A stretch of 64,000 nt of DNA from Enterobacter phage CC31: the sequence record NC_014662.1; one strand, given 5' to 3'. Shown here piece after piece: positions 3,713 to 6,110 of this stretch. Position numbers and translations under genes: made by a program. Each line of letters begins with the position of its first letter. The first letter of the stretch is position 1. The notes beneath the pieces were generated by a model. That model did not search any database. It saw nothing but the letters and a program-made list of their open reading frames with translations, and had not been told where the DNA came from.

Positions 3713-4630
3713 TCATTTGAACGGACGAATCATATCAAAGTTTTGTTTAAAGCGTTTGACATAATCTGTCTTTCCAAGTTTCTTATGCATTGCAACTATC
3801 TTATGGTAGTTTTCCCATGCATATTCACGAAACCAGCCAGATGTAATGCTAGTACAAACTTTTTCCAAAGCGTACATAAATGAACCCGTAGGGTCTGGGT
3901 TGAAATTATTTGGAATTTGATGGCGTTCTAAAGCAAGTACACAAGTTTCTTCATATACACCTGCAAGCTTAAGTTCTTCAGGAAGAGAATCGAACTTCTC
4001 TTTTGAAGTCATTACTTCAGAGCCATCTTTCATGTAGAAAGTATAAGCAGGACGACCAGCTAAAGCCACTGCTTCATGAATTGAATCGTGGTCATAGATG
4101 TAAAAATCATCTTTAAAGAAAGAATCTTTATCTACATCCAGATTAGGATGAGAATATGCTAATGTTTCTTTCTGGCGCAGTTCAGAAATCTTTTTCAGTT
4201 TACTGTCTAAAACAATTCCTTTATTACGCAAGAAACGAATATGATGCATAGTCTTTTGAAAGAAACGAGTGTTCTTCTTGAAACGATGAGACATCTTAAT
4301 TGCTAAGCACATCTCAGGAGTTGCCCAATACATCTGTGAAAGCGCATCATAGCACCCATTAAATACTGCGTAGTGAGCAAGCAGTTCAGATGAACTCTCG
4401 TCGTTATATTCAAAAATGTATGCTTCAAAATAGGTCTCACGACCATTATGCATGCATTTAAAGGCTTGTACATTAGGAGATTGAACTTCGACCTCTGTAC
4501 CATTCATACGGTTTTTGAAATGGAGCCATTCGCCCGGAGACGCGATGAAGTCCCAATCAGAATTCTTAACATCACTGTACTCAATGAGTCCATGGTGATG
4601 TAGAGCTCTAGAACCAATAACCAGCAACAT
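3713..4630 (-). CDS. Hypothetical protein, 305 aa
   Basis: Long ORF; N-terminal VIGSRALHHHG...SDWD loosely resembles a nucleotidyltransferase motif but spacing is non-canonical; C-terminal NFDMIRPFK tail. Confidence 0.5.
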   Translation of the reverse strand: MLLVIGSRALHHHGLIEYSDVKNSDWDFIASPGEWLHFKNRMNGTEVEVQSPNVQAFKCMHNGRETYFEAYIFEYNDESSSELLAHYAVFNGCYDALSQMYWATPEMCLAIKMSHRFKKNTRFFQKTMHHIRFLRNKGIVLDSKLKKISELRQKETLAYSHPNLDVDKDSFFKDDFYIYDHDSIHEAVALAGRPAYTFYMKDGSEVMTSKEKFDSLPEELKLAGVYEETCVLALERHQIPNNFNPDPTGSFMYALEKVCTSITSGWFREYAWENYHKIVAMHKKLGKTDYVKRFKQNFDMIRPFK

Positions 4631-4659
4631 AATATTTTCCTCTTTAGAATGTAGAACTA

Positions 4660-5001
4660 CTATAACACACTTGACTGATGTTGTAAACGGTTCTTTCTAC
4701 ACATTCTGATGAAGTTTTCAATAGGCTCTTCTGGTCTATTGGCTGGATAGCATTTCTTCCAGTTCCACCCTCCCAGCAAGTCAAAGATTTGGTCAGGAAG
4801 AGAATCCCATGGATGTTCTCTTTCGCGGAGTTGAAGCACAATATCACCGGCTGCTTCTCTAATTCCAGTATCAAGTTTTCCATTACAAATCACGACATCC
4901 ATGAGTACTGCAAGACAACAACTATCATGGCTTCCGTATTTGTTCGGATAGTAGAAATAATGGTCAATAATGTAGCAGCAATTACGGTCTAAACCTTTCA
5001 T
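4660..5001 (-). CDS. Hypothetical Cys-rich protein
   Basis: Start chosen at MKGLDRN (ATG 5001..4999 after AGGA); C-terminal ENFIRMCRKNR tail shared with downstream genes. Confidence 0.45.
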   Translation of the reverse strand: MKGLDRNCCYIIDHYFYYPNKYGSHDSCCLAVLMDVVICNGKLDTGIREAAGDIVLQLREREHPWDSLPDQIFDLLGGWNWKKCYPANRPEEPIENFIRMCRKNRLQHQSSVL

Positions 5002-5064
5002 AGTGTTCCTCCAGTGATTCTGGGGAAACTTTTCAGTTTCCCCATATATTACCATTAACAGCTG

Positions 5065-5137
5065 CTAGTGTACCTGGACTCGAACCAGGGAATCGTAGAA
5101 TCAAAATCTACTGCCTTACCAACTTGGCTATACCCCA
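5065..5137 (-). tRNA. tRNA-Gln (UUG), no encoded CCA, acceptor mismatch
   Basis: Manual fold: anticodon arm GTAGA-TTTTGAT-TCTAC, T-arm CCTGG-TTCGAGT-CCAGG; body close to remembered E. coli tRNA-Gln. Confidence 0.7.
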
Positions 5138-5143
5138 ACTGTT

Positions 5144-5220
5144 TGGAGGCGGGTGATGGACTCGAACCATCGCGTAACGGGATATGAACCCGTCATTCTA
5201 CCAACTGAAGTTAACCCGCA
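5144..5220 (-). tRNA. tRNA-Met/Ile2 (CAU)
   Basis: Anticodon arm ACGGG-TTCATAT-CCCGT, T-arm GATGG-TTCGAGT-CCATC, encoded CCA; position 1:72 unpaired. Confidence 0.65.
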
Positions 5221-5230
5221 CTTATCCGGA

Positions 5231-5318
5231 TTCCTGAAGTACAACGGCTGCTTTATGTAGAACTCACCTATTGTGAGGGAACAAAATCACTGGTCCTGGC
5301 ATTAATTATGGACCACCA
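5231..5318 (-). ncRNA. Candidate structured small RNA within tRNA island (not a tRNA)
   Basis: Outer 9-bp stem ttcctgaag/cttcaggaa enclosing two hairpins (GGTCC..GGACC and CTCAC..GTGAG); no T-loop motif. Confidence 0.35.
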
Positions 5319-5340
5319 TCTTCAGGAACTGCCTCGTATT

Positions 5341-5416
5341 TGGCGGACCTAACGGGATTCGAACCCGTGACTCTCACGTGACAGGCGAGTATTTTCACCG
5401 CTGAAACTATAGGTCC
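5341..5416 (-). tRNA. tRNA-Asp (GUC)
   Basis: Perfect cloverleaf: acceptor GGACCTA/TAGGTCC, anticodon arm CTCGC-CTGTCAC-GTGAG, T-arm ACGGG-TTCGAAT-CCCGT, CCA encoded. Confidence 0.8.
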
Positions 5417-5658
5417 AAATTATCTTTCGTGATTATGTGAATCCCTCAGGTTTTCCGGAAAACCGAATAGGCGACAAAAGCTCTCATATACCCGTGCACA
5501 GATATAATCTTTGTTAACTAGTGTCTGAATCAGTATAATCCGAAAGATAACTTTCGGCGCCGTATTTAATTTGAGATATGTAGTTATCGTTGAGGGAACT
5601 CATATTCAGGGATTAACATGCCGACGACTTTGTCAGAACGTCTTCCAACTTCTATATT

Positions 5659-5743
5659 TGGCGGGTCGTGCAGGTATCGAACCTGCCTAGTCATTTCTGA
5701 CACGGATTAACAGTCCGCCGCTTACCCTCTCAGCCAACGACCC
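5659..5743 (-). tRNA. Type-II (long variable arm) tRNA with Asn anticodon GUU
   Basis: 85 nt; acceptor GGGTCGT/ACGACCC, 3-bp D-stem, anticodon arm GCGGA-CTGTTAA-TCCGT, 15-nt variable hairpin GTCA-GAAA-TGAC, T-arm GCAGG-TTCGATA-CCTGC, G73, CCA. Confidence 0.6.
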
Positions 5744-5748
5744 AAATT

Positions 5749-5823
5749 TGGTTCTCCGTAAGAGAATTGAACTCTTCTTTCCGACGTGAAAGGCCGGCGT
5801 CCTAACCGATAGACGAACGGAGA
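5749..5823 (-). tRNA. tRNA-Glu (UUC)
   Basis: Acceptor TCTCCGT/ACGGAGA, anticodon arm CCGGC-CTTTCAC-GTCGG, T-arm AAGAG-TTCAATT-CTCTT, CCA encoded. Confidence 0.7.
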
Positions 5824-5824
5824 T

Positions 5825-5902
5825 TGGTAGGACGTGAGGGAGTTGAACCCATCGACATTCCGATTAAAAGTCGGATGCTCTAACCAACTGAGCTAACGTC
5901 CT
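5825..5902 (-). tRNA. tRNA-Lys (UUU), weak T-stem
   Basis: Acceptor AGGACGT/ACGTCCT, D-arm GCTC-AGTTGGTTA-GAGC, anticodon arm TCCGA-CTTTTAA-TCGGA; T-stem only 3 bp. Confidence 0.65.
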
Positions 5903-5940
5903 GTAGATATTTATAATAACAAAAATATCTTTAAGCAAAT

Positions 5941-6016
5941 TGGTGGGAATAACTGGACTCGAACCAGTGACCTAACGATTATCGGTCGTTTGCTCTACCA
6001 ACTGAGCTATATTCCC
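5941..6016 (-). tRNA. tRNA-Ile (GAU), C at position 33
   Basis: Acceptor GGGAATA/TATTCCC, D-arm GCTC-AGTTGGTA-GAGC, anticodon arm AACGA-CCGATAA-TCGTT, T-arm CACTG-GTTCGAG-TCCAG, CCA. Confidence 0.7.
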
Positions 6017-6022
6017 TGAATT

Positions 6023-6110
6023 TGGTGGGGAGTGATGGAGTCGAACCACCCGAGTCGCAATGACAACAGATTTACAGTCTGCACCGCTACCTCTACGGAA
6101 TTAACTCCCC
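6023..6110 (-). tRNA. tRNA-Tyr (GUA), type II
   Basis: 88 nt; acceptor GGGGAGT/ACTCCCC; anticodon arm GCAGA-CTGTAAA-TCTGT as in remembered E. coli tRNA-Tyr; long variable arm; CCA. Confidence 0.8.

Follow-up and report, generated by a model that had tools for sequence, protein, structure and literature searches.

A tRNA-Asn gene with a structured extra arm in Enterobacter phage CC31 and its family, found almost only in phages

Introduction

Long variable arms in bacteria are reserved for the tRNAs of Leu, Ser, Tyr and selenocysteine (Sec). In the stretch of Enterobacter phage CC31 DNA analysed here (NC_014662.1; 64,000 nucleotides (nt), hereafter the window), a minus-strand tRNA gene at 5659-5743 combines the GUU anticodon of tRNA-Asn with a hairpin in the variable region. 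The question raised by this locus is which amino acid the tRNA carries and why it has an arm of this kind. A preliminary description had proposed a phage-encoded recoding tRNA that could be charged with Ser, or else a degenerate or recombinant tRNA. We report here that the gene is a tRNA-Asn belonging to a phage family in which the arm is maintained as a structure, and we weigh what the arm may do.

Structure of the gene

ARAGORN called a tRNA-Asn(GTT) of 85 nt at exactly 5659-5743 (minus strand), and Rfam RF00005 matched it with 49.8 bits (gathering score 29), the surplus bases falling in the variable region. The preliminary reading of an 85-nt minus-strand tRNA with a GUU anticodon was thereby confirmed, and the ARAGORN check proposed with it returned the Asn isotype. 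Read from the 5' end, the molecule begins with the acceptor strand GGGUCGU (5737-5743), followed by UG and the D-arm GCU-GAGAGGGUA-AGC (5720-5734), which has a 3-bp stem with a possible additional G13.A22 pair and carries G18 and G19. The D-loop has A16 and no position 17, whereas Escherichia coli asnT has U16 and C17. A single G leads to the anticodon arm GCGGA-CUGUUAA-UCCGU (5702-5718, with the GUU anticodon at 5709-5711), and the extra arm GUCA-GAAA-UGAC-UAG (15 nt, 5687-5701) starts directly after the anticodon stem, with a 4-bp stem, a GNRA tetraloop (GAAA) and three unpaired bases before the T-stem. The T-arm GCAGG-UUCGAUA-CCUGC (5670-5686), the 3' acceptor strand ACGACCC (5663-5669), the discriminator G73 (5662) and an encoded CCA (5659-5661) complete the gene. 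The 3-bp D-stem and the 15-nt variable hairpin were thus as first described, and the features expected of a translating tRNA are intact (G73, CCA, G18 G19, T-loop and 7/7 acceptor pairs). A short variable loop of about 5 nt is typical of all cellular tRNA-Asn, whereas the window tRNA has the hairpin arm in its place.

Comparison with E. coli genes showed that the parts of the molecule have different counterparts. The 17-nt anticodon arm is 100% identical to that of K-12 asnT (17/17 nt), in agreement with the preliminary description, and lysT has the same T-stem and the same two acceptor strands, which bears out the remark there on a Lys-like acceptor and T-arm with G73. Over the whole molecule, identity was 69% to lysT, 60% to tyrT, 59% to asnT and 48% to serU. 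The word "recombinant" fits such a mosaic of host-identical segments.

The statement that the tRNA folds cleanly holds for its cloverleaf stems, all of which are intact, and does not hold for the thermodynamic prediction: the minimum free energy (MFE) fold, at -34.0 kcal/mol, is not the cloverleaf, although the latter, at -30.9 kcal/mol, comes within 3 kcal/mol of that value. The extra arm accounts for about -4.4 kcal/mol of the folding energy. The unusual shape and the deviating MFE fold are what could be said for a pseudogene or degenerate tRNA. However, the stems are intact, the Rfam score clearly exceeds the threshold, several phage genera have identical copies, the gene has been conserved in different phage families and covariation is present in every helix, so that the chance of a pseudogene is practically negligible and the suggestion of degeneracy can be dropped.

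Distribution of the long-arm family

A BLAST search with the 85-nt gene alone returned full-length matches annotated as tRNA-Asn in 547 phage records, covering Karamvirus, Klebsiella T4-like phages, Marfavirus, Epseptimavirus, Tequintavirus, Novosibvirus and Phapecoctavirus. The search of other T4-like genomes that had been suggested therefore found the gene there, and also in T5-like and other phages. Identical copies were present in several phage genera, and the length of the long-arm form varied from phage to phage: 85 nt in the Klebsiella phage Roth01, which has a T4-like genome size and tRNA cluster, 83 nt in the Marfavirus phages Potts1 and VAC36, 86 nt in SB9 (Epseptimavirus, T5-like), 88 nt in the T5-like Salmonella phage KKP_3822, 83 nt in BUCT632 (Tequintavirus, T5-like), 85 nt in the Proteus phage PM135 (Novosibvirus) and 86 nt in ESCO5 (Phapecoctavirus). 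GenBank routinely labels the gene tRNA-Asn and sometimes tRNA-Asx. The copy of T5 itself, which was expected to be long, proved to be a short form of 78 nt whose stem is substituted, even though the long form is present in other phages of Tequintavirus and Epseptimavirus; the tRNA-Asn gene of T2 is also of the short form.

We also scanned IMG/VR and cellular genomes for the exact anticodon arm of the window gene followed by a long variable region. In IMG/VR, the pattern was found at 43 long-form loci, representing 33 distinct tRNAs of 79-92 nt, whereas about 100,000 bacterial and archaeal species, each represented by one genome, yielded only four loci. Two of these four lie in arrays of 25-30 tRNAs on short contigs and look typical of phage or mobile tRNA arrays. 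Thus, the long-arm tRNA-Asn is a large family found almost only in phages. No description of it was found in the open-access literature, although an earlier report may exist outside it, and variable arms are never discussed in the papers on PARIS (PMC12409363), OLD (PMC12445682) and Sf14; the family is apparently undescribed.

Three of the cellular loci have a context worth recording. Dense arrays of about 25-30 tRNA genes, filed under bacterial genomes, were seen in Micromonospora craterilacus (L168, 6762-9953; NZ_POTY01000104.1) and in a Flavobacteriales metagenome-assembled genome (MAG; L169, 4061-10998); each has one long-arm tRNA-Asn, L169 has a normal tRNA-Asn as well, and both arrays are probably of phage or mobile origin. 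In a Devosia MAG (L166, 2438-2521; JACRAF010000061.1), an 84-nt gene joins a tRNA-Leu-type body (GCCCCCG UG GCGGAAUGGUAGACGC) to an Asn anticodon arm and G73 in a context that looks chromosomal (DUF2125, response regulator), and is a possible identity-mismatched bacterial tRNA.

The extra arm as a selected structure

The structure of the arm was examined in a set of 44 distinct long-arm tRNA-Asn sequences. Their variable regions measure 11-22 nt, most commonly 15, and their arm stems 2-6 bp, most commonly 3-4. In 30/44 members no base separates the arm stem from the anticodon stem, and in 28/44 the arm stem is followed by three unpaired bases; the loop is GAAA in 20/44 and some GNRA sequence in about 25/44. 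There are 23 distinct stem sequences among the 44 members. In 16 members whose arm is 15 nt long, aligned without gaps, 4/4 arm pairs showed two-sided compensatory changes, 92% of the arm cells were paired compared with 33-41% when the partners were slid out of register, and the covariation score of the arm was 0.535 against 0.152 for shuffles, a value that 0/500 shuffles reached. Shuffle tests on individual sequences gave a median p of 0.26, the stems being too short for such tests to inform. Because all pairs show compensatory changes and pairing is far above the slid and shuffled controls, the extra arm is a selected structure. The identical or near-identical copies in many phages, together with the covariation of the arm helix, also put the window feature far beyond chance.

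The geometry of the arm was then measured against the class II tRNAs from the same phage loci. The median variable region, stem length and number of unpaired bases 5'/3' of the stem were 18 nt, 6 bp and 1/1 for tRNA-Ser (n = 99), 14 nt, 3 bp and 1/3 for tRNA-Tyr (n = 44), 13 nt, 3 bp and 1/2 for tRNA-Leu (n = 70), and 15 nt, 3 bp and 0/3 for long-arm tRNA-Asn (n = 35). The window arm has the geometry of tRNA-Tyr and not that of tRNA-Ser.

This likeness to tRNA-Tyr bears on a simpler account of the arm, in which it was acquired by recombination with a neighbouring class II gene such as tRNA-Tyr and is now tolerated as a relic, its bases paired only to spare the folding of the molecule and serving no function of their own. 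The mosaic of host-identical segments agrees with such an origin, as do the GUC...GAC stem, which is similar to those of E. coli tyrT and phage tRNA-Tyr, the presence of a tRNA-Tyr gene in the same cluster, and the absence of a motif-retention signal in phage tRNA-Thr(UGU) (see below). However, the long form is nearly absent from the cellular genomes scanned yet recurs across many unrelated phage groups, the 0/3 arrangement of unpaired bases is kept despite very different acceptor stems, GNRA loops are frequent, and a neutral insert should be easily lost by deletion. We therefore consider a functionless relic unlikely.

A second alternative is that the arm serves as a handle for a phage or host factor specific to phage tRNAs, acting for instance in their processing, modification, repair or delivery. 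The restriction to phages and the conserved geometry and GNRA loop would suit a binding partner, and a recurrent CAGAUUA or CAGAUAA loop motif in the long arms of phage tRNA-Ile(UAU) suggests recognition in that isotype. Nevertheless, the stems of the Asn arms are highly variable in sequence, and no conserved neighbour gene is common to the T4-like and T5-like carriers; an open reading frame (ORF) shared beside the gene was ruled out as a candidate partner, the neighbours in the two groups being unrelated. A handle for such a partner is accordingly improbable.

Amino acid identity

The anticodon and G73 make up bacterial Asn identity, and a tRNA-Lys body into which they are transplanted acquires it (PMC9976931). 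Both elements read by asparaginyl-tRNA synthetase (AsnRS) are present in the window tRNA, GUU at 5709-5711 and G73 at 5662, and G73 occurs in 44/44 members of the family. Seryl-tRNA synthetase (SerRS) recognises its tRNAs independently of the anticodon, by the long arm and G73 together with the conserved G1-C72 and G2-C71, and C2-G71 is an antideterminant for it, whereas G73 is an antideterminant for leucyl- and tyrosyl-tRNA synthetases (LeuRS and TyrRS; PMC9976931). For TyrRS, which requires A73 and GUA with a critical U35, the window tRNA has the wrong discriminator and third anticodon base, G73 and U36.

Whether AAC and AAU (AAY) codons are read as anything other than Asn was assessed by aligning 23 conserved proteins of the window with their orthologues in T4, which has no tRNA-Asn gene. 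The AAC codons aligned in T4 to Asn in 67.3% and to Ser in 4.1% of cases, and AAU codons to Asn in 56.2% and to Ser in 7.8%. These rates match those of other codons (GAU to Asp 64.7%, UCU to Ser 65.3%), and Ser at AAY positions is at background. Since the AAY codons, which are heavily used by the phage, align to Asn in T4 as other codons do to their own amino acids, AAY means Asn in this phage.

The Ser-charged recoding tRNA of the preliminary description is not supported by these comparisons, and the same evidence bears on its weaker version, a tRNA of dual identity that would be charged in part by SerRS through its long arm, G73 and G1-C72/G2-C71 and would place Ser at some AAC and AAU codons. 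The window copy does have elements that are conserved or determinant in bacterial tRNA-Ser, and phage tRNA-Ser overlaps with it in size, with 4-bp arms in 16/99 and variable regions of 14-15 nt in 9/99. In its orientation, however, the window arm (4 bp, 15 nt) departs from the Ser type, with no unpaired base on the 5' side and three on the 3' side, whereas one and one are found in 71-76/99 phage tRNA-Ser, and its body is least like tRNA-Ser of the host tRNAs compared. In addition, arms of 2-3 bp are common in the family, strong AsnRS determinants are present in all members, and the arm is kept although 17/44 members have the SerRS antideterminant C2-G71 and 28/44 have U1-A72; therefore, recruitment of SerRS is not the common reason for the arm. 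With AAY aligning to Asn and not to Ser, dual identity is very improbable.

Three considerations weigh against the reading as an Asn-accepting tRNA. The Ser-type G1-C72, G2-C71, G9 and G73 are all present in the window copy. Class II synthetases approach the tRNA from the side of the variable arm, so the arm might hinder AsnRS itself. Furthermore, a tRNA-Tyr whose arm was lengthened by one pair reportedly accepted some Ser, a result ascribed to Himeno and colleagues in 1990. Low-level Ser mischarging of the window copy may therefore occur, given its G1-C72, G2-C71 and G73, at levels to which the AAY alignment is blind. The tRNAscan-SE scores in the literature for the tRNA-Asn of Sf14 (Lys 52.7, Asn 47.9, Ser 29.7) were considered as a proxy for identity and set aside, as the Sf14 gene is a 77-nt short form of another sequence and its scores are not transferable. 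Judged by its identity elements, the window tRNA is very probably charged with Asn by the host AsnRS.

Possible role of the arm

The host counterpart of this tRNA is a target of antiphage nucleases. The PARIS nuclease AriB cuts E. coli tRNA-Asn(GUU) between positions 40 and 41, and full rescue from PARIS needs the T5 tRNA-Asn along with the T5 tRNA-Lys and tRNA-Thr (PMC12409363). In the modelled AriB dimer, the two monomers are placed on C40-A41 and on the D-loop bases U16-U17, respectively; cleavage is impaired by U16C, and restoring the E. coli cut site in T5 tRNA-Lys fails to restore cleavage (PMC12409363). Because the D-loop substitution impairs cleavage and the cut site is insufficient to restore it, the tRNA body matters to AriB. 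For the P2 OLD nuclease, the cuts fall behind C28 and C40 within paired CNG motifs with A37, and tRNA-Asn(GUU) is among its substrates (PMC12445682).

The window tRNA is thus an isoacceptor of a host tRNA cut by defence nucleases (AriB and P2 OLD), and it carries no substitutions at or near the cleavage site or in the anticodon loop. It keeps the motifs used by both enzymes (C28-G-G30, C40-C-G42, A37 and U36-A-A-U-C-C41), and a host-like U39-C40-C41 is found in 10/10 long-arm enterobacterial versions; the short phage tRNA-Asn genes examined (T5, T2 and Sf14) instead alter position 39 and the stem. The window tRNA departs from the AriB contacts elsewhere, by its A16, the missing position 17 and a helix lying between the two proposed contact points.

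Considering these results, we propose a plausible model for the tRNA and its arm. The tRNA would be transcribed with the neighbouring tRNAs of its cluster and charged with Asn by the host AsnRS, which would read GUU and G73, and it would decode AAC and AAU as Asn. Its body may be regarded as a mosaic, in which the anticodon stem-loop of host tRNA-Asn is joined to acceptor and T stems like those of tRNA-Lys and to a core remodelled with a short, stable hairpin. G73 would keep off TyrRS and LeuRS, and the short Tyr-like arm would fit SerRS poorly. The arm would alter the face of the tRNA between the anticodon stem and the D-loop; if AriB, perhaps together with Toprim nucleases of the OLD type, recognises not just the cut site but also the body, docking may be blocked by the arm, while the anticodon stem-loop could be left host-identical for AsnRS, the modification enzymes and the ribosome. 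We put forward a shield against tRNA-cutting nucleases as a tentative role of the arm, possible rather than probable.

Several observations speak against a shield. The host-identical Asn anticodon arm occurs together with a short variable arm at at least 120 loci in IMG/VR, which indicates that the long arm is not needed for keeping that stem. Arm-swap experiments with P2 OLD identified the anticodon arm as the main determinant (PMC12445682). The phage Bas33 (HildyBeyeler), which carries a long-arm tRNA-Asn, escaped PARIS with T5 tRNA-Lys alone (PMC12409363), a result that is not diagnostic because T4 and T7 likewise needed no tRNA-Asn. Finally, among phage tRNA-Thr(UGU), a prime target of AriB and OLD, the CNG and UAAU motifs were kept in 4/7 long and 26/51 short forms (p = 1.0).

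The wider occurrence of such arms was surveyed in 120 phage loci whose choice took no account of how long the arms of other isotypes were. Among tRNAs that are normally short, long arms were concentrated in Ile(UAU) (12/41) and Thr(UGU) (6/63), the latter, as a prime nuclease target, speaking for a shield; hairpin arms on Ala, Gly, His, Val or Pro tRNAs were not seen in this unbiased phage set. It is conceivable, though on the doubtful side, that a variable-region hairpin is a general phage strategy against nuclease docking in Asn(GUU), Thr(UGU), Ile(UAU), Lys(UUU) and other tRNAs, forming a second escape route beside substitutions in the anticodon arm.

The phage tRNA-Ile(UAU) genes are of interest in their own right. 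Among the distinct genes, 14/18 are 90-99 nt long with a long variable arm (IMG/VR loci L010, L030, L037, L043, L070, L073, L085, L094-L096, L103, L105, L122, L124 and L134), and the arm loop is often CAGAUUA or CAGAUAA, which may be a recognition element. Other short-type phage tRNAs with hairpin arms were Thr(UGU) of 82-90 nt, Cys(GCA), Trp(CCA), Met(CAU), Asp(GUC) and one Lys(UUU) of 90 nt (loci L035, L061, L070, L078, L085, L103 and L138; also L003, L007, L018, L041, L160, L162 and L169).

A host-identical anticodon stem-loop could also act as bait. The tRNA would then have little role in translation and would titrate or inhibit the nucleases directed at tRNA-Asn, as the PARIS authors suggested for overexpressed viral tRNAs, which may inhibit AriB by competition (PMC12409363). 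The complete identity of the anticodon arm with that of the host suits such a decoy, yet the full set of translation features is conserved and the phage uses AAY heavily, which makes a pure decoy very unlikely. Protection from a homing endonuclease was considered and set aside: the T2 tRNA-Asn gene is the preferred SegB site, but that gene is of the short form and unrelated in sequence.

On balance, we lean towards a functional tRNA-Asn, charged by AsnRS, with a selected phage-specific arm for which nuclease shielding is the leading inference.

Genomic setting

The source of the window is an Enterobacter phage of T4-like type that belongs to the Karamvirus group, with phages CW742 and PG7 as best matches and the gene order of T4; 23 structural proteins are 45-83% identical to their T4 orthologues. 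ARAGORN found seven tRNAs from 5064 to 6016 on the minus strand. With an eighth found by Rfam, the cluster (5064-6110, minus strand) reads, 5' to 3', Tyr(GUA), Ile(GAU), Lys(UUU), Glu(UUC), Asn(GUU), Asp(GUC), Met(CAU) and Gln(UUG), and the tRNA order is the same in Karamvirus relatives. The eighth gene, tRNA-Tyr(GUA) at 6026-6110 (minus strand), is a second class II tRNA of 85 nt, which ARAGORN missed and Rfam matched with 39.1 bits. Its D-arm (UAAUUCCGUAGAGGUAGCGG) is unusual, and the gene is almost the same as the T2 tRNA-Tyr; its counterpart in Cronobacter phage Pet-CM3-4 is annotated as "tRNA-Pseudo-GTA". In the tRNA-Lys(UUU) gene at 5825-5902 (minus strand), which lies in the cluster next to tRNA-Asn, the anticodon stem is UCCGA/UCGGA, compared with GUUGA/UCAAU in E. 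coli lysT; it differs at position 41 (A to G), a site where substitution lowers AriB cleavage in published work.

Between tRNA-Asn and tRNA-Asp lies a 242-nt spacer (5417-5658, minus strand), annotated in relatives as a 52-amino-acid hypothetical protein; in the window this frame is interrupted. Conservation is nevertheless seen at the DNA level, with 88.5% identity to CW742 and 80% identity of the 3' 136 nt to Marfavirus phages, and the predicted fold of the spacer has a long closing helix (z = -2.68; 0/200 shuffles equally stable). There was no Rfam match to the spacer and no similarity to T4 rnaC or rnaD; it may be a stable non-coding RNA. Beyond tRNA-Gln, the closest relative CW742 has a block of His, homing endonuclease, Ser, Trp, Gly, Pro and Phe that the window does not have (window 3713-5064 compared with L001 1-1500), and it has an insert of about 490 bp between tRNA-Lys and tRNA-Ile relative to the window. 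The window ORF at 3713-4630 (minus strand) has DUF7277 and DUF7275 domains.

Discussion

In its action, the window tRNA would resemble an ordinary phage tRNA-Asn of the supplementary or counter-defence sort. The T5 tRNA-Asn is one of the closest known systems to which it can be compared. Both are phage isoacceptors of a host tRNA cut by AriB and lie in a tRNA cluster next to a phage tRNA-Lys(UUU). The T5 gene, however, has 78 nt and a short variable loop, and substitutions in its anticodon stem (GCAUC/GUUGA, G39) give escape, whereas the window tRNA has an unchanged host stem-loop, its differences lying in the body and the extra arm; any resistance it confers is putative. With bacterial class II tRNA-Tyr, the window tRNA shares a short variable hairpin, three unpaired 3' bases, the GUC..GAC stem, G34, U35 and a GAG-type start of the D-loop. 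It differs from tRNA-Tyr in having G73 and not A73, U36 and not A36, no unpaired base 5' of the arm, a D-loop two bases shorter and the acceptor stem of tRNA-Lys.

Engineered tRNA-Lys with an Asn anticodon and G73, as cited in PMC9976931 (refs 135 and 185), likewise combines the acceptor and T frame of tRNA-Lys with GUU and G73, and is described there as accepting Asn. The window tRNA is a natural molecule with a remodelled D-arm and an extra arm, both of which are missing from the engineered ones as cited in that source. The nematode nev-tRNAs, the bacterial allo-tRNAs (PMC5389517) and Candida tRNA-Ser(CAG) also combine a long arm with the anticodon of an amino acid whose tRNA normally has a short one. 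Those tRNAs have a Leu or Ser identity set and cause or permit altered decoding. In contrast, the Asn determinants of the window tRNA, GUU and G73, are complete and match its anticodon, alongside some Ser determinants, its acceptor branch is the canonical 7/5, and decoding is standard as judged from codon usage.

Well-studied, culturable phages infecting E. coli, Klebsiella, Salmonella and Enterobacter commonly carry a tRNA-Asn with a structured extra arm, which cells almost never have. Having a long arm does not in itself mark a tRNA other than tRNA-Ser as a recoding one. The members of this family are natural tRNA scaffolds that seemingly avoid SerRS, TyrRS and LeuRS despite their long arm, which could be of use to tRNA engineering. 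Furthermore, as the cutting of host tRNA-Asn(GUU) by PARIS and OLD has recently been shown, the family raises a testable question, namely whether phages may reshape the tRNA body as a counter-defence.

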